Shown here: positions 1,128-63,335 of the stretch, piece by piece
Layout of the letters: every line of letters begins with the position of its first letter
Position numbering within the stretch: position 1 is the first letter of the stretch
NCBI GenBank assembly: GCA_963716145.1
Contig: OY970292.1
Location: forward strand, 469,171-533,170
Origin: Candidatus Levyibacteriota bacterium
Lineage (GTDB): Bacteria; Patescibacteriota; Microgenomatia; Levybacterales; UBA12049
DNA length: 64,000 nt
Reading direction: 5' to 3'
Translations under genes and position numbers: made by a program
Notes under the pieces: model-generated
The model's input: the letters and a program-made list of their open reading frames with translations, nothing else
What the model was told of the DNA's origin: nothing
The model's database searches: none

Positions 1128-1199
1128 ATCTATATTATAACATTACTTGCCAAATATTCTTAAGTGTTCTATAATTCCAATTTATAAACTTATAAACCT

Positions 1200-1523: not shown

Positions 1524-1574
1524 ATCACAAACGGGACATAGACTAGTTTTATGCCCCGCTATTTACGAATATTC

Positions 1575-2042: not shown

Positions 2043-2049
2043 AAATAAA

Positions 2050-2964: not shown

Positions 2965-3069
2965 AGAGGTATCTTTATCTAACCATATAATGCTGCCTCT
3001 TTCAAGTAGAAAGATTTTACTTATTGAAATCGCTGTGTAAATAAGTATATACTTGTTAGATTAAACACT

Positions 3070-7808: not shown

Positions 7809-7843
7809 CTAGCTATTATAGCATATAGCCAATGGCATATGGC

Positions 7844-8227: not shown

Positions 8228-8315
8228 ATGGTTTCAAGTAGCCAAAAATGGTCAACTGCCATAAGCTATAAGCTATTTGCAATAAGCCGGCACTTGCTTG
8301 CAATAATGGCAAAAA

Positions 8316-9900: not shown

Positions 9901-9904
9901 ATTT

Positions 9905-10005
9905 CGGAAAACTCAGAAAACTCAGTAGTACAGTTGTTTCAGATCATCTGAAAAATCTGATAGTCAGAATCTCTGGCTTTCCGAGTATTCTGAGTGTTCT
10001 GAGAA
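9905..10005. mobile_element. about 100-nt palindromic dispersed element (copy A, intergenic tsf-frr), same family as the two in-frame copies in topA
   Basis: atttcggaaaactcagaaaactcag ... tcagatcatctga ... ccgagtattctgagtgttctgagaa. The ends are inverted repeats of each other, with an internal palindrome. Shares terminal words with the elements at 44499-44590 and 45224-45309. Confidence 0.55.
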
Positions 10006-10009
10006 TAAT

Positions 10010-10465
10010 CTATATTTGAAATCTTTTAAACTCTTTAACTGTGATGTTCTCTCCCAATTTGCCAATTGCTGATTTTACAAGCTGTTCAATTTTTATGCTC
10101 GAATCCCGGATAGAATCTTGCTTCAGCAATGCTTCCACACTTGCAGGATTCATAGCAGATACCTGCATTGCAAGCTCATGAGCCAGGTGTTTGAACTCAT
10201 CTGTTTTGGCGACAAAATCTGTCTCACAAAGAAGAGTCAGCAGAACCCCAATCTTTCCACCTTGATGGATATATGCTTCAACCAATCCCTGACCCGTTTC
10301 CCGTCCCGATTTTTTCTCGGCTTTTTCTATACCTCTTTTTTTAAGCCACTCAAGCGCTTTTTTGTAGTCCCCTTTTGACTCGTCAAGTGCCTGGCGGCAA
10401 TCGGCAATTGATGCGCTGGTTTCATCCCGGAGCTTTTTGAGTAATTTTAGATCGATGTTTGCCAT
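10010..10465 (-). CDS. tsf: elongation factor Ts (short form); start at MANIDLK
   Basis: MANIDLKLLKKLRDETSASIADCRQALDESKGDYKKALEWLKKRG is the EF-Ts UBA-like N-terminus. The ORF-track N-terminal extension (10466-10618) is the low-complexity tail region of rpsB in another frame. Confidence 0.85.
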   Translation of the reverse strand: MANIDLKLLKKLRDETSASIADCRQALDESKGDYKKALEWLKKRGIEKAEKKSGRETGQGLVEAYIHQGGKIGVLLTLLCETDFVAKTDEFKHLAHELAMQVSAMNPASVEALLKQDSIRDSSIKIEQLVKSAIGKLGENITVKEFKRFQI

Positions 10466-10496
10466 AAATTTTGAATTATGAATTAGGAATAATGAA

Positions 10497-11450
10497 TTAT
10501 GATTTTTTTGCTTTTGGTTTTTTATCCTTTGCGGGTTTAACTTTTGGTTTTGTAGATTTACTAGGCTCCTTTTTCCCTGATTCTTGATTCTTAATTCCTG
10601 ATTCTTTTTCAACCGCACTTGTCGCCATTTCCTTTGCCCAGGTTGTGTCGGTTTTTTTAGCTTTGGCCTCTTCTTTTGCCTTCTCGGCCGCGATCTTTGC
10701 GTCCTCTTTCTCTTTCTCTACTGCCTCCTTTGCATCAATAATCTGCTTTGCGGATTTGCCTTCAATCCATGAATCAAAAATATAACTTATGATCAGCTTC
10801 AAACTCCCCACGGCGTCATCATTTGCGGGAATAGGGTAATCAATAATCATCGGATCGGAATTGGTATCTGTGATCCCAATTGAGGGTGTTCCCATTTTTA
10901 AAGCTTCTTCGGCTGCTGCGTGCTCTTCATGAGTATCTATAATAAAAACAGCGTCAGGAGTTCTGGTCATATCGGCAATTCCGCCGTAAAAATTTTCAAG
11001 TTTTTGACGATTTTTCTCCCATTCGCTTATTTCTTTTTTGGTATAACTCGCCTTTTCATTCTCATCCTGTAAACGGTAACTGATATCTGTTAATTTTTTG
11101 AAGTTTTTGGCAACTTCTGAAAAATTGGTGAGTGTTCCTCCGATCCAACGCTTTGTAACGAAATATAGACCTTGGGAACTTGTCTGATCAAGTCTTGTGA
11201 GTTCTTCGCGCAGAATTGTCTCAGCCTGTCTCTTGGTACCAAGAACAAGAAGTGTTCCTCCTTTTTTGGCTAAATCACGGACAAATTTACCTGCTTCTTC
11301 AAGTCCCTCTTTGGTCTTTTCCAAATCAATAATGTGGATATTGTCGCGGGTCTCAAAGATGAATTCACGCATCTTTGGATTTTGGCGGGAGACTTGGTGT
11401 CCGAAATGACAACCAGCCTCAAGTAATTCTTCAAGTGTAACGTTTCTCAT
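10497..11450 (-). CDS. rpsB: 30S ribosomal protein S2 with Lys-rich C-terminal extension; start at MRNVTLEEL
   Basis: LLEAGCHFGHQVSRQNPKM ... IIDTHEEHAAAEEALKMGTPSIGITDTNSDP matches S2. The C-terminal tail AKAKKTDTT...KPKAKKS is low complexity and contains the IKNQE repeat block. Confidence 0.9.
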   Translation of the reverse strand: MRNVTLEELLEAGCHFGHQVSRQNPKMREFIFETRDNIHIIDLEKTKEGLEEAGKFVRDLAKKGGTLLVLGTKRQAETILREELTRLDQTSSQGLYFVTKRWIGGTLTNFSEVAKNFKKLTDISYRLQDENEKASYTKKEISEWEKNRQKLENFYGGIADMTRTPDAVFIIDTHEEHAAAEEALKMGTPSIGITDTNSDPMIIDYPIPANDDAVGSLKLIISYIFDSWIEGKSAKQIIDAKEAVEKEKEDAKIAAEKAKEEAKAKKTDTTWAKEMATSAVEKESGIKNQESGKKEPSKSTKPKVKPAKDKKPKAKKS

Positions 11451-23654: not shown

Positions 23655-23748
23655 GTTTTAAATTTCAAATAACTACCAATTTCAAATATCCAATTTCCAA
23701 TAATTTACATTTAGCATTTGAAATTTGACATTGGAAATTTGAAATTCA

Positions 23749-25616: not shown

Positions 25617-28217
25617 TTGACAGGGCTCTCCTTTATTCACTATGCTAAATATGGATTTATGTCTTTTTTCAAAAAGAATCCTCTTCTTAAGTTGGGGCTT
25701 TTAGCCCTTGTTTTGGTTGGTTTGCCTGCCGCAGTGTTCTTGTCCCAAAAACAAGCCGAGAACAGATCCCGTGCCAGCGCATCAACCACGCTCTACTTTA
25801 CCCCCAGCACAACTACTTCAAGTCCTTTGCAGAAAAATGTCGGCGAGACTGTTGCTTTTGATGTAATGATAAACCCTGGAAACAATCTTGCCGCCTTGGT
25901 AAAGCTTGAAATTGATTGGGACGGCGCAAAGCTTCAACCAGTAGGAAACGCTTTTGTTCAAAACGTTACTAGCATGCCCATAATCGTAGAGGGACCGATA
26001 CTGACCAACGGAAAACTTCTTATTACACTATCAAATGGTTCAGATCCGACCAAGGCACTGGGCCAAATTTCCAGAATCGGAACAATTACCTTTACCGCCG
26101 CCGCCCCAACAGGTTCAACGCCAACAGTTCTATCTTTTGGCTCAAGAGCGCAGGTATTATCAGTATCCTCAACTAACACGTATAACGAAAATGTTTTATC
26201 AACTACAACACCTGCAAGCATTATTATTCCAGGAAGTAACGTCACGCCAACAATCTCTCCTACCCCGCCTACTTCATGCGCCAGTAGCCCGAGTGAAACC
26301 ATGCTCATTATTGATAAGTCCGGAAGCATGAGTGTTGCGGCAGATGTTAATAAAATTACTCAAGCAAAAGCGGCTGCAAAAAGTTTTGTAGATATAATTG
26401 CCCGGGATACTCAAAACACCATTGGTTTGGTTTCGTATGAGAATACAGCAACAGTTAATAGTCCTTTAACCACTGACTATTCGTCTGTTAAAAGTCAAAT
26501 TGATACATTAACCGCAATCGGAAGCACATGTACGGAATGCGGGATAATCAAGGCAAATCAGGAAATCGCGAGAAGCACTTCTTCAAAGAAAAAAGTGGTT
26601 GTTCTTTTGACGGATGGCATAGCCAATTTCGTTGAAGGAAACACCAACCAGGTTGCTCCATCTATTGCAGAGCAAAGAGCGATTGCGGCTGCTGTAGCAG
26701 GACATAATGCCGACGGAACTGTATTTTACACCATTGGCCTTGGAAGTCAGATAAACGCGGCCTTCCTTCAGCAGATTGCCGAATCAACAGGGGGGAAATA
26801 TTACGCAAGTCCGACCGGTGATCAACTAAATACAATCTATAATCAGATTTCAGAAATCTCGGGCAAAGGCTCAGTCAGTGGATCTGTTTTTAATGATGCT
26901 AATAATAACGCAGCTTTTGATTCAAACGAAGCAAAGCTCTCAGGTTGGACTTTACAGCTCCTGGCAGCAGGATCTACAACTCCTCAAACATTCACAAGCG
27001 ATGCAAATGGATTTAACATCACAGGACTTTGTAATGGCACCTATACCTTAAAAGAAATTGTTCAGAACGGCTGGAGACAGACCTTACCGGCTGATCCAAA
27101 TGGATACCAAATTATAATTAACAATGGCGGCGCTATAACAAATAAGAATTTTGGCAATAAGCAGGGAAACACCTGTGCTGATGGAATAGACAACAACGGC
27201 AATAACTTTATAGATATAGCAGATCCTATTTGCCACACTGATGGAAATAAAAATAATCCCGACTCTTATGATCCGAATCTGCCTGAGCGTAACGGTAACA
27301 CCTGCGCCGATGGGATAGACAACAACGGCAATAACCTAATTGATGGCCTGGATCCAATCTGTCACACAGATGGTAACCCTAACAATCCCAATTCATATGA
27401 CCCCAACCGGCCTGAGACAGGAAACACCTGTGCTGATGGAATTGATAATAATGGGAACAACTTCATAGACATTGCAGACCCCATATGTCATACCGATGGT
27501 AACCGCAATAACCCTAACTCCTATGATCCAAATCTTCCAGAGCGCAATGGGAATACATGCTCAGACGGAATAGATAACAATAATAATAATCTAATAGATG
27601 GCTTGGATCCTATCTGTCACACAGGCGGGATTATCACCAATCCATATAATCCTGATCTTCCGGAAAATGGCGGAACCGGAACAAATTTGAATTTGACAGT
27701 ACTTCTTCACGGCATAGGCTCAGCCGGTGACAACGCTACAACTCTCAACAGCGAGAGCAACAAAAACCCACTTCATGCAACAAGAAGTGCACAAGTATCG
27801 ATCTACAATACCGCAAATCAATTGATATCAAGCGCGTCAGGGGTAATAAGATATGCAAGCGCGTCAGGAGACTTCAGGGGAACAGTTGTGACGAGAACTC
27901 CCTTAGCTGCCGGTAATTACAATATCCGCGTGCGGAGCAGTCAGCATCTTACACGTCTCATACCGGGAATACAAACGATTGTGAGTGCGGGAACCAACCA
28001 ACTTCCGCCTGCTAGCCTTGTGGCTGGGGATGTGAACGATGACAACAAGTTAAATATTCTTGATTACAATCTTCTAATTGGCTGCAACAGTATTGAGCCT
28101 GATCCATTATGCACAGGCATTCTCCGAATCCAGACCGACCTTGATGATAACGGGATAATTGATATTGAAGATTACAACTTATTCCTCAGAGAGCTTTCCA
28201 GTCAGCCGGGAGAGTAA
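25617..28217 (+). CDS. large surface adhesin-like protein: signal peptide, cohesin-like domain, vWA domain, SdrD-B/prealbumin-like domain, 4x Cys-bracketed Asp/Asn-rich repeats, C-terminal dockerin
   Basis: Cohesin-like NVGETVAFDVMINPGNNLAALVKLEIDWDGAKLQPV. vWA MIDAS LIIDKSGSMS..LLTDGIANF..TIGLG. Four near-identical 43-aa repeats GNTCADGIDNNGNNFIDIADPICHTDGNKNNPDSYDPNLPERN. Dockerin GDVNDDNKLNILDYNLLIG...DLDDNGIIDIEDYNLFLRE. Confidence 0.7.
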   Translation: MTGLSFIHYAKYGFMSFFKKNPLLKLGLLALVLVGLPAAVFLSQKQAENRSRASASTTLYFTPSTTTSSPLQKNVGETVAFDVMINPGNNLAALVKLEIDWDGAKLQPVGNAFVQNVTSMPIIVEGPILTNGKLLITLSNGSDPTKALGQISRIGTITFTAAAPTGSTPTVLSFGSRAQVLSVSSTNTYNENVLSTTTPASIIIPGSNVTPTISPTPPTSCASSPSETMLIIDKSGSMSVAADVNKITQAKAAAKSFVDIIARDTQNTIGLVSYENTATVNSPLTTDYSSVKSQIDTLTAIGSTCTECGIIKANQEIARSTSSKKKVVVLLTDGIANFVEGNTNQVAPSIAEQRAIAAAVAGHNADGTVFYTIGLGSQINAAFLQQIAESTGGKYYASPTGDQLNTIYNQISEISGKGSVSGSVFNDANNNAAFDSNEAKLSGWTLQLLAAGSTTPQTFTSDANGFNITGLCNGTYTLKEIVQNGWRQTLPADPNGYQIIINNGGAITNKNFGNKQGNTCADGIDNNGNNFIDIADPICHTDGNKNNPDSYDPNLPERNGNTCADGIDNNGNNLIDGLDPICHTDGNPNNPNSYDPNRPETGNTCADGIDNNGNNFIDIADPICHTDGNRNNPNSYDPNLPERNGNTCSDGIDNNNNNLIDGLDPICHTGGIITNPYNPDLPENGGTGTNLNLTVLLHGIGSAGDNATTLNSESNKNPLHATRSAQVSIYNTANQLISSASGVIRYASASGDFRGTVVTRTPLAAGNYNIRVRSSQHLTRLIPGIQTIVSAGTNQLPPASLVAGDVNDDNKLNILDYNLLIGCNSIEPDPLCTGILRIQTDLDDNGIIDIEDYNLFLRELSSQPGE

Positions 28218-32304: not shown

Positions 32305-32446
32305 GTTTTAGCTAATAGCACATGGCTAATAGCTTATAGATTATACCGTATAACTTCGTTTCTGACCATACGCTATATGCCATAAGCTATAGGCAAATGA
32401 CGAAGTCATTCTACAAGGTCCGGCCTCCTGGGGTAGAGTTGATCAC

Positions 32447-34138: not shown

Positions 34139-34404
34139 GTTTGTTAATTTAAATACACTTTAAACTTTTAATTCTGCTTTGCAGAAAACCAAGATGTGGT
34201 AGGAGAGCGAGAGTAGAAATTGTTTTATCCTAAGTGACCTAACTAAGTGTTAGGTTGCTCCGATAAATCGGAGTTTGCGGATAAAACCAGACGCTACTCA
34301 CTTCATCTGTTGCCACATTTTTCCGTGCAGCCATTAGCCAATAGCTATTAGCTATTTGCCATATGCTACTACGTTATATGTCTTCCCCTTTCCTTAAAAA
34401 AAAG

Positions 34405-36275: not shown

Positions 36276-36424
36276 TTCGAGGACTAGGTATATGAAGAAG
36301 GTGGAAGGCTAATTTTCAATTTTTAATTTTCAGTTTTCAATCAAATTACAATGACACGATTTTGAAAATTTAAACATTGAAGCATTCAATGAAAATTGTA
36401 AATTGAGAATTGAGAATTCGGAGC

Positions 36425-37304: not shown

Positions 37305-37415
37305 TTAAACTTATAACTGATTACTTATAACTGATAACATTTCGTTATTGTTATTTGTTATGAGTTATCAGTCGTCATAACTTGTTATCTGTTATTAGTT
37401 ATCAGTTGGAGAACT
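37305..37415. repeat. AT-rich palindromic word-repeat element (TTATAACTGATAAC family)
   Basis: cttataactgattacttataactgataac ... gttatcagtcgtcataacttgttatctgttattagttatcag. A second copy is at 54905-54985. Confidence 0.6.
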
Positions 37416-43687: not shown

Positions 43688-45919
43688 TTAACTGCTTTGG
43701 AGTTTTACATTTTTGCTTTCTTTCGCTTCCGAGCTCTTGTTAATTTCTTCAAGTTTCCATGCCGCGAAGTCGCACTTCGGATAGTTCGCACAGCCATAGA
43801 ATTTGCGGCCTTTTCTGGTTTTGCGAATAATTACTTTCCCTCCGTCTTTTGGACACAAAACATTGGTCTCCTCAACAAAAGTTTTGGTGTATTTACATTC
43901 AGGAAATCTGCTGCATGAGAAAAATTTGCCAAATTTTCCGTGTCTTATCACAACCGGTGCACCGCACTCAGGACATTTTTCATCTGTTGCTTCTGTGGCT
44001 ATCGCTACCCGCACCGATCCTTCTGCCTCCTCAACCGCTTTCTCAAAAGGCGTGTAAAAATCCTTCATCATCTTGACCCATTGTACTTTTCCGCTTGCAA
44101 CATCATCCAGCTGTTCCTCCATCGAAGCGGTGAAGGGAATATCATCAATTGTTGAAAAATTGGCGACCAGAAAATCATTCACCGACATCCCAATTGGCGT
44201 GGGGACAAACTTTTTTTCAATCCGTTCAACATAAGCACGATCCACGAGGGTTGAAATAATGGAGGCATAAGTTGAAGGCCTGCCAATCCCCTTTTCCTCA
44301 AGAGTTCCGATAATTGACGCCTCATTGTATCTTGGAGGGGGAAGCGTTTCATGCTGCTCAAAACGCGCTTTAATTAGATCGAGTAACTCTTTTGCTAAAA
44401 ATTTTGGCAATTGATTATCTTTAAGCGCCTGGGGATTTAACTTCAAAAATCCGTCAAAGACCAAAACCGAACCAGCTGCTTTAAGTCGATATTTCGGAAC
44501 ACTCGGAAAACTCGGTGTATCAGTGTTTCTGACTTTCTGATCATCAGATTGTCTGACAGACTGGATTTCTGAGTGTTCGGAGTTTTCTGAAATTGCATCA
44601 ACTAAAACTGAAGTGGATTCGACAATAGCATCCGCCATCTGCGAGGACACTGCCCTCCTCCAAATCAAATCGTATAGCTTTGCATAATCTTTCCCGAGTT
44701 CATTCTGAACTATGAATTCTGAATTCTGAACCTTGGTGGGCCTGATTCCCTCATGGGCCTCCTGCGCGTTTTTCTGTTTGCCAGAAAAAATACGGGGTGC
44801 TTCGGGTAAGTATTTTTTCCCATATTCTTTTTCAACAAACGCTCTGAACTGGGAGATCGCGGCTTTTGAAATCGCTATTGAATCTGTTCTGTGATAAGTG
44901 ATGAAGCCTTCTTCATAAAGTTTTTGGGCAAGACTCATCGTCCGTTTTCCGGGAAATCCAAAGCGCCTGGATGCCTCTTGCTGAAGAGTTGAAGTTGTAA
45001 AAACAGGTCCCGGACTTCTCTTTGCTTGTTTTTGCACAACATCTGAAACTGTGAAATTGTTCTTTTCAAGATCGCGGGTAATCTCCTGAGCCCTTTTTTC
45101 ACTATCAATAGTTGTTCTTGTGACATTATATTCACCATCATAAAGTTCAAATTTTTCTTTTGCTTCGATCTTGCTGCCATTAATCTCAACCAGCTCAAAA
45201 TCTGTTCCTTCTTTGCCCAGAACACTCGGAAAACTCGGTCCGCCGGATTGTCTGATTGTCGGAGTATCAGAATCGCCGGATTTCTGAGTATTCTGAGTTT
45301 TCTGAGAAGAAACCAAGGTAGCATGAACTGTAAAATATGATTTCTTTGCAAATTTCTCAATCTCCCGCTCCCGCTCAACAATCATCCGTAGTGCAACGCT
45401 TTGTACACGCCCTGCTGACAAACCCCGGCGTACCTTTTTCCAGAGTAATGGCGACAATTCATAACCAACTAAACGATCCAAAACCCGCCTTGCAGTCTGC
45501 GCCTCAACCAAATTCATGTCAACTTCCCGTGGATTATCCAGGGCTTCTTTAATTGCCGATTCCGTAATTTCATGAAAAGCTATCCGCCTAAACTTTGAAC
45601 TTTGAACTTTGAACTTTGAACTTGAGAGGAGCACATCTCTGATGTGCGACGCGATAGCCTCCCCTTCGCGGTCCGGATCTGTTGCCAAAATTATCTTATC
45701 AGCCGATTTAGCAAGGGATTTTAGTTCAGCAATTAGTTTTTTCTTATCTGCAATTACTTCATAAAGCGGTGTAAAGTTGTGCTCAATATCGATTCCCATC
45801 TTGCTTTTGGGCAAATCCATGACATGACCCATTGAGAATTTGATCTCATAATCCTTCCCGAGGAATTTGCTAATTGTTCGGGCTTTAGTGGGTGATTCGA
45901 CAATTACTAAACTTTTCAT
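43688..45919 (-). CDS. topA: DNA topoisomerase I with three in-frame repeat-element insertions
   Basis: TOPRIM start MKSLVIVESPTKARTISKFLGKDYEIKFSMGHVMDLP. Catalytic region ...GFITYHRTDS. C-terminal Zn ribbons CPECGAPVVIRHGKFGKFFSCSRFPEC / CPKDGG...YGCANYPKC. Insertions are at aa 100-110 (SKFKVQSSKF), 203-233 and 440-476. Confidence 0.9.
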   Translation of the reverse strand: MKSLVIVESPTKARTISKFLGKDYEIKFSMGHVMDLPKSKMGIDIEHNFTPLYEVIADKKKLIAELKSLAKSADKIILATDPDREGEAIASHIRDVLLSSSKFKVQSSKFRRIAFHEITESAIKEALDNPREVDMNLVEAQTARRVLDRLVGYELSPLLWKKVRRGLSAGRVQSVALRMIVEREREIEKFAKKSYFTVHATLVSSQKTQNTQKSGDSDTPTIRQSGGPSFPSVLGKEGTDFELVEINGSKIEAKEKFELYDGEYNVTRTTIDSEKRAQEITRDLEKNNFTVSDVVQKQAKRSPGPVFTTSTLQQEASRRFGFPGKRTMSLAQKLYEEGFITYHRTDSIAISKAAISQFRAFVEKEYGKKYLPEAPRIFSGKQKNAQEAHEGIRPTKVQNSEFIVQNELGKDYAKLYDLIWRRAVSSQMADAIVESTSVLVDAISENSEHSEIQSVRQSDDQKVRNTDTPSFPSVPKYRLKAAGSVLVFDGFLKLNPQALKDNQLPKFLAKELLDLIKARFEQHETLPPPRYNEASIIGTLEEKGIGRPSTYASIISTLVDRAYVERIEKKFVPTPIGMSVNDFLVANFSTIDDIPFTASMEEQLDDVASGKVQWVKMMKDFYTPFEKAVEEAEGSVRVAIATEATDEKCPECGAPVVIRHGKFGKFFSCSRFPECKYTKTFVEETNVLCPKDGGKVIIRKTRKGRKFYGCANYPKCDFAAWKLEEINKSSEAKESKNVKLQSS
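44499..44590. mobile_element. palindromic dispersed element, copy C, in frame inside topA (adds ...SENSEHSEIQSVRQSDDQKVRNTDTPSFPSV...)
   Basis: cactcggaaaactcgg ... ctgatcatcag ... atttctgagtgttcggagttttctga. Same terminal words as copies A and B. Confidence 0.6.
45224..45309. mobile_element. palindromic dispersed element, copy B, in frame inside topA (adds VSSQKTQNTQKSGDSDTPTIRQSGGPSFPSV)
   Basis: cactcggaaaactcggtccgccggattgtctgattgtcggagtatcagaatcgccggatttctgagtattctgagttttctgag. Confidence 0.6.
45591..45623. repeat. 33-nt tandem heptamer block (AACTTTG)x4+AACTT in frame in topA; identical to 7533-7565
   Basis: Read directly from the sequence. Confidence 0.9.
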
Positions 45920-45937: not shown

Positions 45938-48181
45938 TTAGATTATACAGGAGCTGTCAAGTTCTTGTGTGAAATTGGCTATTGCTAAATGATTAACGAG
46001 TGGTACTACTGCTTCCTCCTGATGATCCTCCTGAGCTCCCCCCGCTTGATCCACCGCTAGAACCTCCACTACTACCTCCGGATGAACCACCCGATGAGCC
46101 ACCAGAACTACCACCGGAGGATCCACCGCTAGAACCACCTGAACTTCCACCACTGGAGCCTCCACTGCTTCCGCCTGAGCTGCCTCCACTAGAACCACCG
46201 GAAGACCCGCCTGAGATCCCCCGGAACTCCCTCCTGATCCTCCACCGGGGAGGTTAATGTTTTGAAAACCACCAGGTAAGCTCGAGGGAACAAGATTCTG
46301 GATGTTTGAAGGTATTGCCACGTTGGGTTGTTGAATGTTTGGCTGATTAGGTGTACCTGTTGGCAAACCTGTCTGGTTTGAGCCCGGACAGGGAATAGCA
46401 GGTGGAGTTCCCCGGCCAATTAACTGGAACAACTTACCGATAAAGTCCATAATCAACTGCCAGAATCCTCCCAAGAGCCCCCCACCAGTATTACCGGTAC
46501 ATGGAGGTGTATTCGTTGGGTTTGGATTGGCCGAAGGACTTGCGCTGGGCGCTATATCAGTAACTGATGGGTTAGGCTGGCCTGTCACAGTCGGATTCGG
46601 GCTGGCACCTTGAGTTAAGGTTGGATTGCAGATGCTATCAGGGGAACCTGCACAAACAAAAGTAGGAGCCGGACCAGTCGGACTTGGGGATGCTGTAGGA
46701 GAATCTGTAATAGTTGGGGTAGTTGTAGGAGTAATAGTCGGAGTGATAGTTGCGCTTTGTGAGGCAACTGCTGCTCCCGCATTTACGCGCCCTTTCTGCC
46801 AGTAAGTTCCTGTTCCCGTTATTTGATCGGCGGTCGCGTATAACCTGTCGACAACTACCTGATTTGACGTGTTATAAGGAGGCGTTGACCAGATAAGAGC
46901 AACAATTCCTGCCACCATTGGCGCTGCCATAGATGTTCCGGACAAGTAACCGTAGTTTGTTACGCCGATTTGATTTTGATGTGTGGGCAGAGTTGAAGCT
47001 ATATCTTTGCCGGGCGCCGCTACGGTTACCCATGATCCATGTTCTGAAAATGCTGTTTTCTGATCTTTATTATCAGTTGCTGCTACAGAAACAACATGCG
47101 GATATCCTGCAGGGTATTCAACTGGATTCTGCGTACTACAATTATTATCCAAATAGTTGGAGCCTCCGCAATTACCTGCTGCCGCAACAAGGACAACTCC
47201 TTTGCCCCACGCATAGGCAACAGCATCCGCTAATACCTGAGAATTAAAATCCGGCCTTGCAAGACTCATGCTGATAACCTTTGAGTTATTATCCGCTGCC
47301 CAGTTAATCCCTTGAGATACTAGTGAAACCGAAGATCCCCCTCTGTCATCAGCAACCTTTCCAATCATCAACTGACATTCAGGACACACCCCTGCAATGC
47401 CCTGACCGTTATTGCTATTGGCCGCGATAACCCCCGCCACATGCGTTCCATGTCCATAAGCATCGTCTATTGACGAAGTAACAAATACCCGCTGTGCTGC
47501 TACTCTGCCTGCAAATTCAGGGTGATTTAGATCAAGCCCGGTATCAAGAACTGCTACCTTTATTCCCGTTCCCTTTGTGACCTCCCATGCGGCTTCTGCA
47601 TGAACATCGGCATTTGTAGTGCCTACCTGACTTTGAATCATCTGCCCCATATTCTTTAATCCATATTGCAAATTATAATTAGTGTCATTTGGAGAAACCA
47701 AAACATGGATAACTACATCCAACTCCGCGTATTTAACCAGTCCATCCTTTATCAGCTGCGCACGCACAGCTTCCTCCTGCCCAGCCGGTACTTCAACAAC
47801 TTTTACATTTATTCCTGAAATTGTTGATTTAATTCTCGCATCATATTTACTTAAACTATTGTTTATTTCTGCATCAGTTAGTCCGTCTTTAAACTTAACG
47901 TTAATTTGCCCTTGAACAAAGTCTTTCCCTGGGACAAGAGGTGGAGTGAGAGTTGGCAAATTTTGCGCCGTATTACTTTCCTGTTGCTGTTGAACACGTA
48001 GCTGCAATGTTACAAGAATTAAGAATATAAAAAAGGTTGAAAAAATAGCAGCTATAAATATAGGACTGCGGGGGTTAATCCTGCTTAATAGGGATTTAAT
48101 TTTATCAATCATTGTTTTTGGTTTTTTGTGTCTATGTTTGATAGCTATAAATAGCGTATTAGAAATCTTGAGGGTTGTCAA
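45938..48181 (-). CDS. S8 family serine peptidase (subtilisin-like) with N-terminal TM anchor, Pro/Thr-rich linker and C-terminal (GGSS)n repeat; 3' end frame uncertain
   Basis: Catalytic triad contexts VAVLDTGLDLNHPEF (Asp), HGTHVAGVIAA (His), GTSMAAPMVAG (Ser). After about aa 650 the ORF enters a perfect 12-nt repeat. The annotated frame leaves the repeat in a different frame from the (GGSS)n frame, which ends STTR-stop at 45973. Confidence 0.8.
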   Translation of the reverse strand: MTTLKISNTLFIAIKHRHKKPKTMIDKIKSLLSRINPRSPIFIAAIFSTFFIFLILVTLQLRVQQQQESNTAQNLPTLTPPLVPGKDFVQGQINVKFKDGLTDAEINNSLSKYDARIKSTISGINVKVVEVPAGQEEAVRAQLIKDGLVKYAELDVVIHVLVSPNDTNYNLQYGLKNMGQMIQSQVGTTNADVHAEAAWEVTKGTGIKVAVLDTGLDLNHPEFAGRVAAQRVFVTSSIDDAYGHGTHVAGVIAANSNNGQGIAGVCPECQLMIGKVADDRGGSSVSLVSQGINWAADNNSKVISMSLARPDFNSQVLADAVAYAWGKGVVLVAAAGNCGGSNYLDNNCSTQNPVEYPAGYPHVVSVAATDNKDQKTAFSEHGSWVTVAAPGKDIASTLPTHQNQIGVTNYGYLSGTSMAAPMVAGIVALIWSTPPYNTSNQVVVDRLYATADQITGTGTYWQKGRVNAGAAVASQSATITPTITPTTTPTITDSPTASPSPTGPAPTFVCAGSPDSICNPTLTQGASPNPTVTGQPNPSVTDIAPSASPSANPNPTNTPPCTGNTGGGLLGGFWQLIMDFIGKLFQLIGRGTPPAIPCPGSNQTGLPTGTPNQPNIQQPNVAIPSNIQNLVPSSLPGGFQNINLPGGGSGGSSGGSQAGLPVVLVEAAQAEAVEAPVVEVQVVLAVDPPVVVLVAHRVVHPEVVVEVLAVDQAGGAQEDHQEEAVVPLVNHLAIANFTQELDSSCII
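46005..46235. repeat. about 230-nt near-perfect 12-nt tandem repeat encoding (GGSS)n on the minus strand
   Basis: Minus strand reads ggtggttctagcggtggatcctccggtggtagttctggtggctca...; read directly from the sequence. The + strand ORF 46000-46257 (PPELPPLDPP...) is the antisense reading of the same repeat. Confidence 0.85.
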
Positions 48182-54412: not shown

Positions 54413-54420
54413 AGATAATT

Positions 54421-54508
54421 TTCAGTTTTCAATTTAAAATTTGAAATGAATATCCAATGTTATAAATTTAAATTTTTAAAATTTAGGATTTAATGAAAAT
54501 TGAAAATT
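54421..54508. repeat. AT-rich palindromic word-repeat element (GAAAATTGAAAATT family) between PBP2 start and mreD stop
   Basis: aattttcagttttcaatttaaaatttgaaa ... gaaaattgaaaatttcaaattgaaaatttt forms an inverted repeat. Family members are at 23655-23748, 36291-36420, 57801-57928, 61017-61075 and 63241-63335. Confidence 0.6.
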
Positions 54509-54913
54509 TCAAATTGAAAATTTTGTGGTTTTCATAATAGCAAATAAAGATACTGCAATTATACAACTAACTCCTGCTTGCAAAAATACTCCTCCGTGCC
54601 CAAAAACCAGCAAATACACGTATGCTCCCGCAAATGAACTGACTATTATGAAGGGATACGAATGTATTTCATACTTGCGCTGATACAAAAGCACCATTAA
54701 AAAAAACAGCAATAAAAAAATGCTTGATGATCCTAAAATTCTGAGATTAAATATATCCAAAAATATACCTGCCGCAAAAGCAAGTGCAAAAATAATAGAC
54801 GTTCTTTTTGCAATACTAATACTCAGAAGAAGTACAAAACTCAGGGGGATTGAAATAACAGTTGCCTCAAAAAGAGCAGAAATAAAGAGTAAAACTAACA
54901 AAATTACGAACAT
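54509..54913 (-). CDS. mreD: rod shape-determining protein MreD (putative)
   Basis: 134-aa protein with 4-5 TM helices immediately downstream of mreC and upstream of PBP2, the canonical mreBCD-mrdA order. Confidence 0.5.
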   Translation of the reverse strand: MFVILLVLLFISALFEATVISIPLSFVLLLSISIAKRTSIIFALAFAAGIFLDIFNLRILGSSSIFLLLFFLMVLLYQRKYEIHSYPFIIVSSFAGAYVYLLVFGHGGVFLQAGVSCIIAVSLFAIMKTTKFSI

Positions 54914-54966
54914 AAACTTATAACTTATAACTTATAACTTATAACTGAGTTATCAGTTATCGGTCA

Positions 54967-55724
54967 TCAGTTATTAGTGGTGATCACAAACACAGTCTCC
55001 AATTTGTTAAAATCAACCAAACTTCTTATATCCGCGGATTGAAATAGATTGCTTGCTTTTTTATTTACTGACACTATTTTTCCGACTACCAGATCAGGCG
55101 GAAATCCTAGACCATTTTCGTCCGTATCTCCCTTTGTGCTGACCAAATCGTCTTTTTCCAATCCTTCTGCCAAAACTACATTATCAAGCACCAGTCCTCC
55201 CGCTTGTCCACGTATTATTCCGAGGAGCCTGTTTTAAGTGTTTTTGCGGTAAATGATATGTTGCTTGAAATAAGCCTTATAATTGAAAGATGTTGAGATG
55301 CTTTGTCTACCTTACCAACCAGATTGTCTTTTACAACAACCACCTGCCCCTTTTTTATGCCGTCTGCCTGTCCTTTGTCTATTATGATAGTCTCCCCCAT
55401 CCCACCTATTACCATTGCCGGTAAAAGCGTTCTTGGGGATGGATTTGCGGTTTCGAATTGATCCCTAAGGGCCTGGATTTCATGTACCTGTTCTGTCTGC
55501 TTTACTAGCTCTGATGCCAATTTTGCATTTTCCTCTCGCAACTTTACTGTCTCTCCTCTATCTGAATTTATTGTGCCAAAAACCGTCCGCTGCAAAGGAA
55601 GTGTTGCACCCTCAAAAAAACCGGTTAAACCGGCGAGATATCCGGCGCGGGATAAAACAAAAAGAAGTATTGCAAGAATAAAAAAAATCAAAAAAACAGG
55701 GAAAAAGCTCTTCCTCTTTTGCAT
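54967..55724 (-). CDS. mreC: rod shape-determining protein MreC, interrupted by a 1-nt frameshift near 55205
   Basis: ORF 55215-55724 has the TM plus coiled coil (ENAKLASELVKQTEQVHEIQALRDQ) and first beta domain. ORF 54967-55191 has the conserved C-terminal domain (GLVLDNVVLAEGLEKDDLVSTKGDTDENGLGFPPDLVVGKIV). Restoring one G in tcgg(g)aataata joins them. Confidence 0.75.
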
Positions 55725-57655: not shown

Positions 57656-57928
57656 ATCAAAACCAATTCTATCAGCTTGTCCCGTTAGAAATCCAGTATT
57701 AATACTTCTGATTAATATAACAAAATGCATCAATTTTATAAAAGTTAGCTTGAAAATTTTTCTAACGGGGCTTGCCCACATTTTTCCAATATGATAACAT
57801 CATAAAAGAATTTAAAATTTTCAATTTTTAATTTTCATTGAATTTTCAATTATTAAGTTTTTAATGTTTTAAACATTTTAAATTATGATTTCATTGAAAA
57901 TTTCAAATTTCGAATTGAAAATTAAACT

Positions 57929-60406
57929 ATGAAAATCATCAATTATCTCAACCGCATTATTGAATTCTCTTTCTACCTCCTTTTCCTGCTTGTACCTCTG
58001 GTTTTCAGCAGCTCTCCCTCTGAGCTGTTTGAATTCCCCAAAATGTGGCTTACTTTTGGATTAACGATAGTAATTGTCACCTTCTGGATTGTAAAAATGA
58101 TCCTCCAAAGGAGGATTCTTATTCAACGGACACCGCTAGATATTCCTCTCCTTCTTTTCCTTACTTCCCAAATAGTCTCAACTCTTTATTCACTCGATCC
58201 TCACGTCTCTCTCTGGGGATATTATTCACGATTTAATGGCGGACTACTTTCGACAATTTCTTATGTACTTTTGTATTATGCCTTTGTTAGCAATTTTTCA
58301 AACAACGTTGAAGTTAAAAAACCAAATGGACTTATTTATTCAATCTTCGCAATAGGAATTACTCTTCTCCTGAGCCTATCTACAATAGTCATGACAGGAC
58401 TTTCTTTTCTCTCCTTAAGTGTTTTTTTAACCAGCAGCATATTCTTTCTGAGCACTTGGTATCTACCGGGAAGTGTAGCAATGCGAACAATTTCAATAAG
58501 CTTAATATCTGGATCACTTGTCGCACTCTGGGGATTTCCATCACACTTTGGATATGATCCGACTTGTTTTATTTTCAGAGGGAGTTTTGACACATCATGT
58601 TGGACTGAAGCTTTTAAGCCCACAATCCGAATCTTCTCAACTCTTGGCCAGCCTGCATGGCTAGCAGCATATCTATCTATTCTAATACCGCTTGCGATTT
58701 CATATTTTTTGATATCTCGAGAAACGCAAGATACATCTTCAACAAAGAATCAAGAATCAAGAATCAAGAATTACGGAAACCCAAAAAAAAATTATCTTAC
58801 TTCTTACTTCTTACTTCTTACTTCTTTACTCTTTTATGCTTGCCTCACCTACACCGATACCAGAGGCGGATTCATCGGTTTCTGGATCGCCAATCTTATT
58901 TTCTGGGGCTTAGTTTATTTTAAAAAAATTTTATCCGGCAAAAATTTTCTTAAATATTTTCTTATATTTAATCTTTTATTTTTAATCTTTAATTTTCTAC
59001 AAGGTATTCCCATTTCACAAATTTCAAAATTCACTTATCCTGAGCTAAATAAAACACAATCAAGCCCAACTGTAGTACCAAAGCCAGCTGCCGGAGAACT
59101 CGGCGGAACTGATTCCGGCAAAATCCGCCTTTTAGTTTGGCAAGGAGCAATTGATATATGGCAGGACAATCCAATTATCGGCACCGGTGTTGAGACTTAT
59201 GCTTTTGCGTACTATAAATACAAGCCGGTAGCGCACAATCTCACATCCGAATGGGATTATCTCTACAACAAAGCCCACAATGAATACCTGAATTATCTGG
59301 CTACAACAGGGATATTTGGATTGGGAAGCTACTTAGCAATCATCGGGACGTTCCTTTTCCTCTGTCTTAAGCATCTCAAAATTCAAAATTCAAAATTCAA
59401 AACTACAACTCAAAATTCAAAAATTGAAAACTTGGAAAATTCATTGGAAATTGGAAATTGGAAATTGGAAATTGCCCTTATCGCAAGCTATATTTCAATC
59501 CTCGTTTCTAACTTCTTCGGCTTCTCGGTTGTGATCATCAATCTCTATTTCTTTTTAATCCCGGCATTTGTCTTTATACTGGGAAATTTTCTGAGTCCTG
59601 ACAAAGCTTTAGTGTTCCCAAACAATAAATTAAGAGCTGAGAATCAAGAATTAAGGAAAAAAGAAAATATTACAGCGCTACAATGGATTCTTATTGCACT
59701 CTTACTTCTTACTTCTTACTTCTTACTTCTTACTTTAGTACGCTACTGGAATGCTGACATAAATTACGCGATCGGGTCAAATCTTGATAAAGCCGGCAGT
59801 TACCAGGAAGCAACTAAACCGCTCCAAAACGCAGTGGAGGCAAAACCCAATGAACCGGTATACAAAGACGAACTGTCGATAAATTTAGGCACACTCGCCG
59901 CTGCTCTCTACCTACAGAAAGATGCTTCAAGCGGTGCACAGCTTGCCCGTGACGCGATTTCACTTAGCGATCAGGTAGTTGCAAATCACCCCAATGATGT
60001 TGTCTTTTGGAAAAACCGCGTACGGCTTTTCTACACACTTGCACAAGGCGACACAGCGCATGAAAAAAATTACCTTGACCAAGCTCTAAAAGCGATTAAA
60101 AAAACTCAAGAGCTGGCTCCAAATGATGCCAAAATTTCTTATAACTATGCTGTTTTAGCTGGACAGATTAAGACTCCTCAAAAAGGAATTGAGATTCTTG
60201 AAAATACTATTAAATTGAAACCAGACTACCGCGATGCATATTTTGCATTGGGATTGTATTTTCATCAGTTGGCAACAGATAAAGATGGAAATGTTGTGGA
60301 TTCTGCTTTGCAGAAAAAAGCAGTTGACGCTTATAACTACATTCTAAAAAATCTTGATCCAAATGATAAACAAATAAAAGATAGCTTGAAAAGTTGGGAG
60401 AAATAA
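57929..60406 (+). CDS. O-antigen ligase (Wzy_C) family membrane protein with C-terminal TPR repeats
   Basis: About 12 TM helices. Wzy_C core RLLVWQGAIDIWQDNPIIGTGVETYAFAY...HNLTSEWDYLYNKAHNEYLNYLATTGIFG. C-terminal 250 aa with TPR-like repeats (AYFALGLYFHQL...). Three in-frame low-complexity blocks. Confidence 0.7.
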   Translation: MKIINYLNRIIEFSFYLLFLLVPLVFSSSPSELFEFPKMWLTFGLTIVIVTFWIVKMILQRRILIQRTPLDIPLLLFLTSQIVSTLYSLDPHVSLWGYYSRFNGGLLSTISYVLLYYAFVSNFSNNVEVKKPNGLIYSIFAIGITLLLSLSTIVMTGLSFLSLSVFLTSSIFFLSTWYLPGSVAMRTISISLISGSLVALWGFPSHFGYDPTCFIFRGSFDTSCWTEAFKPTIRIFSTLGQPAWLAAYLSILIPLAISYFLISRETQDTSSTKNQESRIKNYGNPKKNYLTSYFLLLTSLLFYACLTYTDTRGGFIGFWIANLIFWGLVYFKKILSGKNFLKYFLIFNLLFLIFNFLQGIPISQISKFTYPELNKTQSSPTVVPKPAAGELGGTDSGKIRLLVWQGAIDIWQDNPIIGTGVETYAFAYYKYKPVAHNLTSEWDYLYNKAHNEYLNYLATTGIFGLGSYLAIIGTFLFLCLKHLKIQNSKFKTTTQNSKIENLENSLEIGNWKLEIALIASYISILVSNFFGFSVVIINLYFFLIPAFVFILGNFLSPDKALVFPNNKLRAENQELRKKENITALQWILIALLLLTSYFLLLTLVRYWNADINYAIGSNLDKAGSYQEATKPLQNAVEAKPNEPVYKDELSINLGTLAAALYLQKDASSGAQLARDAISLSDQVVANHPNDVVFWKNRVRLFYTLAQGDTAHEKNYLDQALKAIKKTQELAPNDAKISYNYAVLAGQIKTPQKGIEILENTIKLKPDYRDAYFALGLYFHQLATDKDGNVVDSALQKKAVDAYNYILKNLDPNDKQIKDSLKSWEK

Positions 60407-60425: not shown

Positions 60426-61016
60426 ATGAAGATTGTTCAGGCGCCAAATGAAGTTTTGGCAAATCCCTCCCAACCGGTTAGAAAGATTGATAAATCAATC
60501 CACGCTCTTCTTAAAGAGATGGAGAAATCACTTCTTACGGCAACAGATCCTGAAGGAGTTGGCCTCGCTGCACCGCAAATCGGCAAGGGCCTACAAATTT
60601 TCATAGTCAAAGAAAATCCTGAAGCAAAGTTAAAGGTATTTATAAATCCGGTTATTGAAAGTTTTGTAGAAAAACCAAAAGAAGAAAATTTAGTTGCCGT
60701 TCAAAGTAAAAAAACCTCAAAAGCCAAGAAAAAGGCAGGCATTAAAAAAGGCGTCCAGCTGGAAGGCTGCCTCTCACTTAAAGATATTTGGGGAGTTGTC
60801 AAGCGTCATGACGAAGTTGTTTTATCCTTCATGGATGAAAATGGTGTGCAGCACAAAAAGACATTTGATGGGTTTCTGAGCGTAATTATTCAGCATGAAT
60901 ACGACCATCTGCAGGGAATTCTCTTTCCCAAAAGAGTCCTTGAGCAGAAAGAAAAACTTTACAAATCGGTAAAAAATAAAAAAGGCGAGACGGAATTTGA
61001 GGAACTGGAAATTTAA
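60426..61016 (+). CDS. def: peptide deformylase
   Basis: Motif I GVGLAAPQIG, motif II EGCLS, motif III HEYDHLQG. K-rich insert between motifs I and II. Confidence 0.85.
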   Translation: MKIVQAPNEVLANPSQPVRKIDKSIHALLKEMEKSLLTATDPEGVGLAAPQIGKGLQIFIVKENPEAKLKVFINPVIESFVEKPKEENLVAVQSKKTSKAKKKAGIKKGVQLEGCLSLKDIWGVVKRHDEVVLSFMDENGVQHKKTFDGFLSVIIQHEYDHLQGILFPKRVLEQKEKLYKSVKNKKGETEFEELEI

Positions 61017-61037
61017 ATTTTAAACATTAAAAATTGA

Positions 61038-61904
61038 ATGAAAATTGAAAATTTTAAATTGAAAATTGTTTTTTTGGGTAATACCAAATTCTCGCTCATC
61101 GGTGCACAGATTATTCATCAAAAAATCGGATTGTCTCAAATAGTGACGCTCCCCGACCGGCCTGATAAAAAGGGTAACCCAGCTCCAAACCCTCTAAAAA
61201 CCTTTGCAATTGAAAATAAAATTCCTTATCTTTTGGTTGATAAAATAACCGATGAAATTGTAGCTCAAATTGAGGCATTAAACCCAGATTTTCTGGTAGT
61301 TGAAGACTATGGATTAATTTTGCCCCCCCAACTTCTAACAGTCCCCAAATACCTAAGTCTTAATATCCACCATTCTTTACTGCCAAAATACCGTGGCACT
61401 TCCCCGGCACCCTTTGCTATTTTGGCGGGCGACAAAATAACAGGAGTTACAGTGATTGCGATGAATGACAAAGTAGACGCCGGTGACATTTTGGCGCAAA
61501 AAAATTACGAGATGAAACCCGATGAAACAACAGAAAGTCTTCTGACAGAATTAAATAAATTGGGCGGAGAAATAATAATTCCTGTTATAGAGAATTACGC
61601 AAAAGGAAAAATAGACGCCAAAAAACAGGATGAGTCAAAAGCAACTTACACAATGCGCATGAGCAAATCTGATGGACAGATTGATCTAAATAAGCCGCCG
61701 GATAAAGCCAAACTCGACCGCATGATTAGAGCATATTATCCCTGGCCGACCGTATGGACCAAAGCAAGAATTAAGAATCAAGAATTAAGAATAAAGTTCT
61801 TGCCCAAGCAAAAACTTCAAGTGGATGGCGGCAAACCAATGAGTCTTAAAGATTTTTTCAACGGCTATCCGGAATTGAAAAACCAAATAGAAAAATTGGT
61901 TTAG
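61038..61904 (+). CDS. fmt: methionyl-tRNA formyltransferase
   Basis: NIHHSLLPKYRGTSPAPFAILAGDKITGVTV (formyltransferase core). C-terminal domain present. The gene begins inside a GAAAATTGAAAATT word repeat (MKIENFKLKIV). Confidence 0.85.
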   Translation: MKIENFKLKIVFLGNTKFSLIGAQIIHQKIGLSQIVTLPDRPDKKGNPAPNPLKTFAIENKIPYLLVDKITDEIVAQIEALNPDFLVVEDYGLILPPQLLTVPKYLSLNIHHSLLPKYRGTSPAPFAILAGDKITGVTVIAMNDKVDAGDILAQKNYEMKPDETTESLLTELNKLGGEIIIPVIENYAKGKIDAKKQDESKATYTMRMSKSDGQIDLNKPPDKAKLDRMIRAYYPWPTVWTKARIKNQELRIKFLPKQKLQVDGGKPMSLKDFFNGYPELKNQIEKLV

Positions 61905-63193: not shown

Positions 63194-63335
63194 CATAGGA
63201 AAATATGATAACATATTAGAAGAAAATTTTCAATTCGATCCGCCAGTTGGCGAATTCAATCATGTTTCAATTTTTAAACATTTTGTCATTGAAAATTCAA
63301 TAAAAATTGAAAACTGAAAATTAAAAATTATTACT

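Follow-up and report, generated by a model that had tools for sequence, protein, structure and literature searches.

Palindromic elements lying in frame in topA are probably miniatures of a PF05635 cassette found in rRNA genes

Three copies of one palindromic element lie in the 64-kb stretch of a 1.14-Mb genome that we analyzed (the window), and the copies of this source genome discussed here are those within it. We consider it very likely that they are dispersed miniatures, devoid of an ORF, of a PF05635-encoding cassette of the rRNA intervening-sequence type, and that copies lying in frame within genes are translated. Two sit in topA, which encodes a type IA DNA topoisomerase I of 743 aa (43688–45919, minus strand; PF01751, PF01131 and PF01396 are present in all homologues). 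The copy at site 1 (45217–45309, plus strand) is read on the minus strand as TopA residues ~204–234 (SSQKTQNTQKSGDSDTPTIRQSGGPSFPSVL), and that at site 2 (44494–44592, plus strand) as residues ~443–476 (ISENSEHSEIQSVRQSDDQKVRNTDTPSFPSVPK). The third (9903–10007, plus strand; nhmmer 9904–10005, 93.7 bits) wholly occupies the spacer between tsf, for EF-Ts (10010–10618, minus strand; PF00889, E = 1.8e-17), and frr, for ribosome recycling factor (9349–9900, minus strand; PF01765, E = 3.6e-46), running from the tsf stop codon (10010), 3 nt from the copy, to the frr ATG (9900), which abuts it. An earlier note on this DNA had placed all three copies within a few bases of these limits and had read both topA copies as keeping the reading frame, which they do, free of stop codons within the 743-aa ORF. 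Of the insert lengths it gave, about 30 residues agrees with the 31 measured at site 1, and about 36 compares with 34 at site 2; the peptide PSFPSV is, as it claimed, common to both inserts.

Each window copy is an imperfect palindrome of ~90–105 nt without an ORF, homologous to the other two. Each arm comprises three 9-nt units in tandem (TC-N-GAA-N-AC and its complement), the units having a TCNGA core; in the centre this core recurs in 8-nt units, and the short internal palindromes seen earlier belong to this run of cores. Core spacing is thus 9 nt in the arms and 8 nt in the centre, and the termini read ATTTCNGAA...TTCNGAAAT. A 16-nt arm motif (≤2 mismatches) occurs seven times in the window against 0.11 expected, and a degenerate 21-nt arm pattern, for which 0 matches are expected, hits the six arms and nothing else. 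The three copies can be aligned in either orientation (mean column identity 69%) and are therefore palindromic.

As RNA, the window copies are predicted to fold into long interrupted hairpins, at −37.8, −41.2 and −40.2 kcal/mol on the plus strand (z −5.2 to −5.8) and −32.7, −28.9 and −30.5 kcal/mol on the minus strand. The variable base N of the core pairs in the stem as A-T, G·T or A·C, with G-C nearly missing, and the variable spacer base of the arm units is mostly mismatched. We found no compensatory changes in the stem, and the hairpin itself bears no sign of selection. Rfam covariance models gave chance-level matches only (E above 0.1) and no family that fits the element, which leaves a self-splicing intron or other described RNA family without a match. 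A role of TCNGA as a restriction-modification or methylation site was also dropped, as the motif is neither over- nor under-represented outside the elements (observed/expected 1.02).

We searched for further copies with an nhmmer profile made from the three window copies alone. The earlier note had named beforehand two findings that would speak against its reading, namely that the element is unique to the three loci and that the TopA segments are ancestral. As to the first, dozens of Microgenomates/Patescibacteria genomes and metagenome contigs gave full-length matches to the profile, with E down to 1e-21. The family consists of imperfect palindromes of 77–137 nt in more than 85 unique copies; the copy counts given here are samples, covering at least 85 unique copies among the matches listed. 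Among these matches, ~60% of copies occupy intergenic spacers, in many cases the whole distance between stop and start codons, and ~40% lie within intact housekeeping genes, every one in frame and stop-free (32 of the 85 unique copies listed are in frame in long intact ORFs). Pfam domains of the host protein are found on both sides of the in-frame inserts. RadA carries the element at the same site in at least five genomes, five hosts are LeuRS, and the other hosts identified by Pfam are class II ribonucleotide reductase, MurD, 5'-3' exonuclease, DnaX, RecG, ATP-dependent DNA ligase, YchF, GMP synthase, and Wzy_C and PMT_2 membrane proteins. This census was drawn from DNA scans because a profile of the element peptide gave only five weak matches against 5.8 billion proteins.

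Different, complete-looking genes stand on either side of the element in all ten intergenic neighbor pairs checked (both identified by Pfam in seven, one only in three), and none of the ten is a gene split by the element. The orientation of intergenic copies relative to neighboring genes shows no clear bias (about 11:7). The Rickettsia-like behavior proposed in the earlier note is borne out by the in-frame share; to our knowledge, in-frame selfish palindromes in protein genes at such frequency have been documented only in Rickettsia. A literature search for such elements, palindromic or in frame, in Patescibacteria, Microgenomates or the candidate phyla radiation yielded no description of the phenomenon, in line with what the note had supposed of this lineage.

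[quoted passage not shown] Looking between paired copies of the element for a transposase, we found none and instead came upon PF05635 genes: inverted half-arms bracket such a gene in five loci, all retrieved by the arm pattern alone. The cassette measures ~0.5 kb, with the element's arms around a 121-residue PF05635 gene; the arms are 23 nt long, 87% complementary and 432 nt apart. The five proteins form one subfamily of at least 465 protein clusters, and when further members were looked up, the same arms flanked four of four, so that the cassette with these arms is found in at least nine loci (L085, L064, L117, L002, L032, L173, L179, L180 and L182). The subfamily's organism-named matches are Microgenomates or Patescibacteria except for two: one, the record of the query itself, carries the label 'Eisenbacteria', probably in error, and the other is a plain 'bacterium'. 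The L173 cassette lies inside an 825-nt insertion of the 23S rRNA gene, at model positions 2526/2527, and the L179 cassette, with homologous flanks, lies within an rRNA operon; the cassette is also found in intergenic spacers of Microgenomates (Patescibacteria). Since the same arms flank these genes, the window copies are best explained as ORF-less miniatures of this rRNA intervening-sequence family. Descent could run from cassette to miniature or, through capture of an ORF, from miniature to cassette.

Which base occupies N of TCNGA varies with reading frame, and wherever it sets the amino acid, Gln and Pro are preferred over Arg and Leu. Where N is the second codon base, left-arm units have A (Gln) 24 times and G (Arg) twice, and right-arm units in the same frame have C (Pro) 17 times and T (Leu) once; non-coding copies have A24:G31 and C20:T47, respectively. 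Fisher tests of coding against non-coding base choice give p = 2e-5 for the left arm and 6e-7 for the right, values that are approximate in that arm units are non-independent, with several per copy and some copies kin. In the frame where N is synonymous, base choice resembles that of non-coding copies, and the NGA frame, in which T at N creates a TGA stop, accounts for 1 of 86 arm units. Such frame-dependent choice argues for translated inserts, and from these sequence comparisons we infer that their peptides are under selection. It also explains why coding copies run 19:1 antisense to the seed orientation, and a polarity of insertion was accordingly discarded.

If instead the insert were removed or skipped, by RNase III excision, intron-like splicing or ribosomal bypassing, it would be absent from TopA; we think this improbable. 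Ribosomal bypassing of a hairpin is known from phage T4 gene 60 and the 'byp' elements of yeast mitochondria. All copies fold into a long hairpin, a cassette found in a 23S rRNA gene has the element's arms as its stem, and in other bacteria such intervening sequences are cut by RNase III (PMC4990558). That excision occurs without ligation, however, and would leave the mRNA in two (PMC4990558; PMC11270868), and no Rfam intron family matches. Removal would free copies from constraint on frame and stop codons, so the finding that intragenic copies are all in frame and stop-free, with no split gene among the ten intergenic cases, counts against it. The frame-dependent arm bases are those expected under selection on a peptide. 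Further, in 15 of the 19 coding copies the sense transcript forms a weaker fold than the antisense strand, by a mean of 7 kcal/mol.

In TopA itself, both segments are insertions, as the earlier note had held, rather than ancestral linkers. The E. coli protein is continuous at site 2, where query residues 442 and 476 correspond to E. coli 419 and 421, and at both sites the loops are short in most close orthologues, those with 72–73% identity included. In a tree of 121 sequences, element-carrying TopA proteins are spread over three separate clades; the sister sequences P0002–P0004 carry other inserts in the same loops, and one or both loops reach at least 25 residues in 41 of the 121. Several TopA loop expansions are palindromic at the peptide level. 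Both inserts are hydrophilic, and in an AlphaFold model of moderate quality (mean pLDDT 68.9) pLDDT falls below 50 at residues 209–235, between strands E194–204 and E239–246, and at 448–472, between strands E431–444 and E477–487. The copies are thus predicted to lengthen two beta-hairpin tips with disordered residues; from the E. coli TopA alignment and the structure of that enzyme, we take both tips to belong to domain II. NTDTPSFPSVPK and QSGGPSFPSVLGK are candidate peptides spanning the TopA insert junctions.

That these inserts are selected modules, serving a role in the TopA loops or as RNA processing or stability sites in operons, instead of near-neutral selfish DNA, strikes us as no less improbable than their removal. 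Selection on the peptide is frame-specific, TopA, RadA, ribonucleotide reductase and Wzy_C proteins recurrently carry inserts at the same sites, and intergenic copies fit exactly from stop codon to start codon, all of which a useful module could explain. However, the selection is of a kind that keeps a loop harmless, avoiding Leu and Arg and favoring Pro and Gln, with no conserved motif; in the TopA orthologues closest to this one, the element is missing or unrelated elements take its place; and the host proteins share nothing beyond a housekeeping role.

Least probable, by a little, is that the inserts are local expansions of variable linkers, arising through slippage during replication or through template switching, and resemble one another by convergence: the window is rich in 7–9-nt tandem arrays, some encoding seemingly native segments (for example, (TCTTACT)n encoding a transmembrane stretch in the ORF at 57929–60406), sister lineages have expanded the same loops with other sequences and target-site duplication is not seen, but convergence is not expected to produce arms, central units and their order common over ~95 nt to unrelated genes, spacers and an rRNA insertion, nor a three-copy profile that recovers other copies with E down to 1e-21, nor the link of the arms, at nine loci, with a single PF05635 subfamily.

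As dispersed miniatures, the copies invite comparison with Rickettsia palindromic elements (RPEs), short palindromic dispersed repeats that lie, many of them in frame and at fold-compatible positions, in unrelated housekeeping genes without inactivating them and for which no transposase is known (review, PMC10969869). The element matches the ~100–150-bp palindromes of that class in length (77–137 nt) and in its large share of in-frame copies in intact ORFs (32 of 85 unique copies listed); it is RPE-like in behavior, and the likeness we claim is confined to that. It differs in its hosts (Patescibacteria/Microgenomates, not Rickettsia), in its arms of tandem 9-nt units and in having a full-length PF05635-encoding partner that lives in rRNA genes, and we know of no such partner for RPEs.

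The 23S intervening sequences of Coxiella burnetii and Leptospira are cassettes of ~0.45–0.5 kb in the 23S gene, with terminal inverted repeats forming a long stem and an ORF of ~120 aa encoding PF05635 (PMC4990558), and PF05635 ORFs in rRNA insertions are on record for candidate-phyla-radiation bacteria (PMC11270868). The window copies share the long-stem terminal inverted repeats (−38 to −41 kcal/mol, z about −5) and differ in location, being in topA and the tsf-frr mRNA spacer, and in lacking the PF05635 ORF that nine relatives possess. Because they are without an ORF while relatives with the same arms encode PF05635, we regard them as derivatives and not full members of the intervening-sequence class. 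The Microgenomates element differs, too, in its periodic arms and in position: helix 45 houses the Coxiella element (PMC4990558), and L173 interrupts the 23S gene at 2526/2527 as part of a larger insertion.

[quoted passage not shown] The in-frame intragenic share is far higher in the present element, and the longer relative with the same ends encodes the PF05635 protein only, with no transposase. Nor is a target-site duplication visible: direct repeats of ≥2 nt were absent at the approximate ends of each window copy and in ~40 displayed flanks. REP elements are 20–40-nt palindromes with a conserved 5' GTAG, linked to RAYT, a Y1 (IS200-like) transposase; an assignment to that class was rejected on length and termini, and none of the arm-bracketed genes encodes a Y1 transposase.

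Neither a presence/absence polymorphism nor a transposase for the element was found, and we infer movement from the distribution of copies. Under the miniature reading, the copies seen would be the survivors of many insertions, those in frame and stop-free in tolerant loops having persisted. Mobility would come from a trans-acting factor that recognizes the periodic arms, for which the PF05635 protein is the obvious candidate; we know of no part that PF05635 plays in DNA mobility, and of no function established for it since its discovery in rRNA intervening sequences. If the link holds, it joins two phenomena studied apart for decades, in-frame selfish palindromes and PF05635-bearing rRNA intervening sequences, and offers, in PF05635 binding to periodic arms, a candidate route of spreading. 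It would also help to account for lineage-specific inserts in candidate-phyla-radiation proteins and would show an essential enzyme to be tolerant of ~30-residue inserts arriving repeatedly at defined hairpin tips. For annotation and phylogenomics, such inserts inflate protein lengths and create spurious similarity between unrelated proteins.

The window also contains a related architecture of a different family (7809–8290, minus strand), in which a PF05635 (23S_rRNA_IVP) gene (7844–8227; E = 8.5e-35) has inverted heptamer arrays (TATAGCA / ATAAGCT) on either side. The periodic inverted arms of this gene and of the PF05635 gene at L103 are built of different units, and the layout of an intervening-sequence protein gene with periodic inverted arms is thus present in the source genome. 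More speculatively, PF05635 proteins could be the specificity factors of a superfamily of mobile periodic-arm palindromes, each subfamily recognizing its own array of 7–9-nt units, whose elements and miniatures invade rRNA genes, spacers and the loops of essential proteins; we hold this broader idea as tentative and, on balance, doubtful. Were it true, these elements would be a major source of lineage-specific inserts in candidate-phyla-radiation proteins, replacing one another at the same sites. PF05635 proteins are resembled in sequence and structure by Avd (PMC10053308), an essential accessory protein for retrohoming in diversity-generating retroelements; the surroundings of the element cassettes examined, in contrast, showed neither a reverse transcriptase nor a template/variable repeat pair. 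The PF05635 protein of the window itself gives a weak match to bAvd.

Three homologous, imperfect palindromes of about 95 nt are present in the window, as the earlier note had described. One (9903-10007) fills the whole tsf-frr spacer, from the tsf stop codon to the frr ATG, and the other two lie within topA (43688-45919, minus strand; a 743-aa ORF), encoding TopA residues ~443-476 (site 2; 44494-44592) and ~204-234 (site 1; 45217-45309). The three copies can be aligned with one another in both orientations. Three 9-nt units in tandem make up each arm, the left-arm unit being TC-N-GAA-N-AC and the right-arm unit its complement, and between the arms lies a run of 8-nt units that share the TCNGA core. 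Within the window, a 16-nt arm motif with up to 2 mismatches has 7 matches against 0.11 expected, and a degenerate 21-nt arm pattern (CYGAGTDTTCBGAGTKTTCYG; 0 expected) matches the six arms exclusively. RNA folding, which the note had proposed, predicts long interrupted hairpins on the plus strand of all three copies (-37.8, -41.2 and -40.2 kcal/mol, z ~ -5), and weaker folds on the minus strand (-32.7, -28.9 and -30.5 kcal/mol). The element stem displays no compensatory changes, its variable spacer base being usually mismatched, and a search of Rfam with the element returned no matching family.

The family extends beyond these loci. A scan of the arm pattern over one genome per species yielded at least 117 loci, and a profile made solely from the window's three copies recovered full-length copies in other Patescibacteria/Microgenomates assemblies. 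Among the matches listed, full-length palindromic copies occur only in such assemblies (Levyi-, Collier-, Woese-, Curtiss-, Davies- and Chisholmbacteria) and in a few bins apparently mislabelled; the other arm-pattern matches listed are simple, non-palindromic 9-nt tandem repeats. The bins labelled Gammaproteobacteria, Eisenbacteria or Xanthomonadales (L040, L069, L094, L110, L117 (CAZFNO01, CAYTZB01), L079, L085 (DASQJJ01) and protein P0003) look mislabelled or contaminated; they carry the element together with Microgenomates-type genes. A stricter whole-element pattern found 52 metagenome loci, 11 of them from the sample that yielded the TopA homologue P0023.

Counting unique copies at 40 bits or more, and calling a copy intragenic when it lies inside a long ORF with at least 50 residues on each side, we found 32 of 85 (38%) within long ORFs among the matches listed. 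Hosts identified with Pfam include RadA (the same site, just past the Walker A motif, in at least 5 genomes), leucyl-tRNA synthetase (five), class II ribonucleotide reductase (several copies, including two paralogues on one contig with an identical site), MurD, 5'-3' exonuclease, DnaX, RecG, ATP-dependent DNA ligase, YchF, GMP synthase, Wzy_C and PMT_2 membrane proteins, a group 1 glycosyltransferase and an integrase-like protein. A 1942-residue protein of locus L162 holds two in-frame copies (3254-3344 and 4169-4254) and an intein (Pfam Intein_splicing, residues 1116-1379); one copy lies just ahead of the intein, and the other adjoins the GGIVAHN motif at its C-terminal end. None of ten intergenic copies checked, with neighbouring ORFs on one strand, splits a gene: in all ten the neighbours are different, complete-looking genes, and Pfam names both in seven pairs and one in three.

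The topA copies preserve the reading frame, as had been claimed: both are stop-free within the ORF, and the PSFPSV common to the two inserts lies at the end of each peptide. Because query residues 442 and 476 align to E. coli TopA 419 and 421, site 2 is a clean insertion, and site 1 lies where the sequence is variable (E. coli TopA 230-255). Among 28 TopA orthologues, P0008-P0016 (72-73% identity) have short loops at both sites. The continuity of E. coli TopA at site 2 and these short-looped orthologues mark the segments as insertions rather than ancestral linkers. A neighbour-joining tree of 121 TopA sequences, restricted to columns with at least 90% occupancy, spreads the carriers of this family over three separate clades, namely the window sequence, P0023 with P0058, and L054, and a codon alignment places the element at an identical position after V-D-A in the window, P0023 and L054 proteins. 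Both loops contain different inserts in the nearest relatives, P0002-P0004 (75-80% identity); in P0002 these are another palindrome (site 1) and a (GTCAGCA)x4 array (site 2). One or both loops reach at least 25 residues in 41 of the 121 orthologues (medians 16 and 13), and several expanded loops are palindromic as peptides (e.g. VIAS...PRND, VILS...QND). In an AlphaFold model of TopA (mean pLDDT 68.9), the two inserts (residues 209-235 and 448-472) are low-confidence loops (pLDDT <50) between paired strands (E194-204/E239-246 and E431-444/E477-487). From the alignment to E. coli TopA and the structure of that protein, we take both insert-bearing hairpins to lie in domain II.

Base choice within coding copies follows the reading frame. 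With N of TCNGA in the second codon position, A (CAG, Gln) outnumbers G (CGG, Arg) by 24 to 2 in the left arm, and C (CCG, Pro) outnumbers T (CTG, Leu) by 17 to 1 in the right; the corresponding counts for non-coding copies are A24:G31 and C20:T47 (Fisher p = 2e-5 and 6e-7 versus the second-base frame, approximate values since arm units are non-independent). When N falls on a synonymous third position (TCN, Ser), the ratios (A7:G11 and T8:C8) resemble those of non-coding copies. The remaining frame, which puts N first in the codon so that T would give TGA, accounts for 1 of 86 arm units. TCNGA outside elements shows no skew. Avoidance of Leu, Arg and stops is the direction that selection on the loop peptide would predict, and the frame-dependent choice is sequence-level evidence that the inserts are translated. 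It also explains an apparent 19:1 orientation bias of coding copies: the frame-dependent transitions leave the mRNA with A.C mismatches and the antisense strand with G.U pairs, and for the same reason the sense strand folds more weakly in 15 of 19 coding copies. A further benefit may be that a stem sensitive to RNase III is weakened in the mRNA.

A search for a transposase between nearby paired copies found none; PF05635 (23S_rRNA_IVP) genes were there instead. At three loci from different genomes, inverted half-arms surround a PF05635 gene of ~121 aa (E 4e-16 to 6e-23), and a local profile search of all loci added two more arm-flanked genes (L002 and L032) and further PF05635 genes in the window and in L103. 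All five arm-linked proteins belong to a single subfamily (MIRDV.DL.VY...), and one of them, used as a database query, matched at least 465 protein clusters, nearly all ~121 aa, one annotated '23S rRNA gene intervening protein'; all organism-named matches are Microgenomates or Patescibacteria save a plain 'bacterium' and the query's own record, whose 'Eisenbacteria' label is probably wrong. Four further members, retrieved by exact-sequence look-up, all have the element's arms (upstream TCGGAaaacTCGGAa[at]acTC..., downstream ...TCTGAgtttTCTGAa). Further, the window-derived profile matches both cassette flanks (E down to 3.5e-10).

In Woesebacteria (L173) the cassette sits inside an 825-nt insertion in the 23S rRNA gene, at model positions 2526/2527; the same gene (1-3472) has a group I intron at 1263-1517, apart from that insertion. 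A Roizmanbacteria rRNA operon (L179) contains a cassette with homologous flanks, and a LAGLIDADG ORF as well; in L180-L183 the cassette is found in a spacer upstream of mreB. Because arms are shared with PF05635 cassettes, including one in a 23S rRNA gene, the window copies are ORF-less miniatures of an rRNA intervening-sequence family. The Coxiella intervening sequence, of the same architecture as the cassette, is 428-444 nt long, contains an S23p ORF and ends in a stem of 28 bp that RNase III cuts; its mobility has long been suspected (PMC4990558); PF05635 ORFs have also been reported in rRNA insertions of candidate-phyla-radiation bacteria (PMC11270868).

Rickettsia palindromic elements (RPEs) are the reference case for in-frame palindromes (PMC10969869). 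The earlier note's RPE-like reading stands, with in-frame copies in many intact genes of unrelated function, and a more exact name is available for the element, a miniature of a PF05635-type rRNA intervening sequence: it resembles RPEs in behaviour and would belong with intervening sequences by descent. We infer that copies arose by movement; the miniature would have descended from the cassette, not the cassette from the miniature, and the PF05635 protein may take part in movement. Inspection of the ends and flanks of family copies revealed no visible target duplication, and no recombinase or filled/empty allele pair. Literature searches turned up no account of in-frame palindromes in this lineage, and the combination of RPE-like behaviour with intervening-sequence descent is apparently undescribed.

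The layout of a PF05635 gene between inverted periodic arms extends beyond this family. In the window, a PF05635 gene (7844-8227, minus strand; E 8.5e-35) lies between inverted heptamer arrays, TATAGCA / ATAAGCT (7809-8290), and the PF05635 gene of L103 has inverted GTATCAARR arrays on its flanks. Arrays related to the window heptamers recur at 32365-32394 and 34337-34366. In addition, AT-rich palindromes fill many intergenic spacers, often completely (23655-23748, 36311-36418, 37308-37407, 54417-54522, 54915-54978, 57808-57923, 61009-61068 and 63271-63330); their arms are tandem 7-8-nt units of varied sequence, and the architecture is that of the studied element with different units. Candidate explanations are terminators, processing sites or further miniature families.

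Different element families occupy exactly the same sites in TopA (both sites), RadA and Wzy_C, as would be expected either if very few sites are tolerated or if a new element inserts into, or replaces, a palindrome already in place. For Wzy_C, L006 has the studied element, with its 9-nt units, exactly where the window orthologue has a heptamer-type element (59376-59474). The window gene (57929-60406) has further in-frame periodic segments at 58745-58846 and 59621-59744. The peptide encoded by its (TCTTACT)n arrays, LLLLTSYFLLLT, has the look of a native transmembrane stretch; periodic arrays may therefore arise inside native coding sequence too.

A perfect heptamer array, (AACTTTG)x4.7, occurs in frame at both 45591-45625 and 7533-7567, 100% identical over 35 nt. 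In topA, where it is a third repeat-derived segment, its product is SSSKFKVQSSKF, within a loop that exceeds the E. coli one by 6 residues (pLDDT <50); the copy in an M50 (RseP-like) protease gene (6612-7808) is translated as KFKVQSSKFKV. Other host proteins have similar K/F/Q-rich peptides. The 3' part (46015-46237) of a subtilase (S8) gene (ORF 45938-48181) is a run of 12/36-nt repeats with an unusually low-complexity C-terminal translation, and the opposite strand there has a long ORF rich in P-P-E/D-L. Strand skew is strong over the whole window (C 22.4% versus G 18.4% on the plus strand), and the plus strand therefore looks like the lagging strand throughout. Lastly, a 129-nt tandem repeat (3.6 copies, 68% matching) at 27165-27643, inside ORF 25617-28217, is probably a repeated protein domain.
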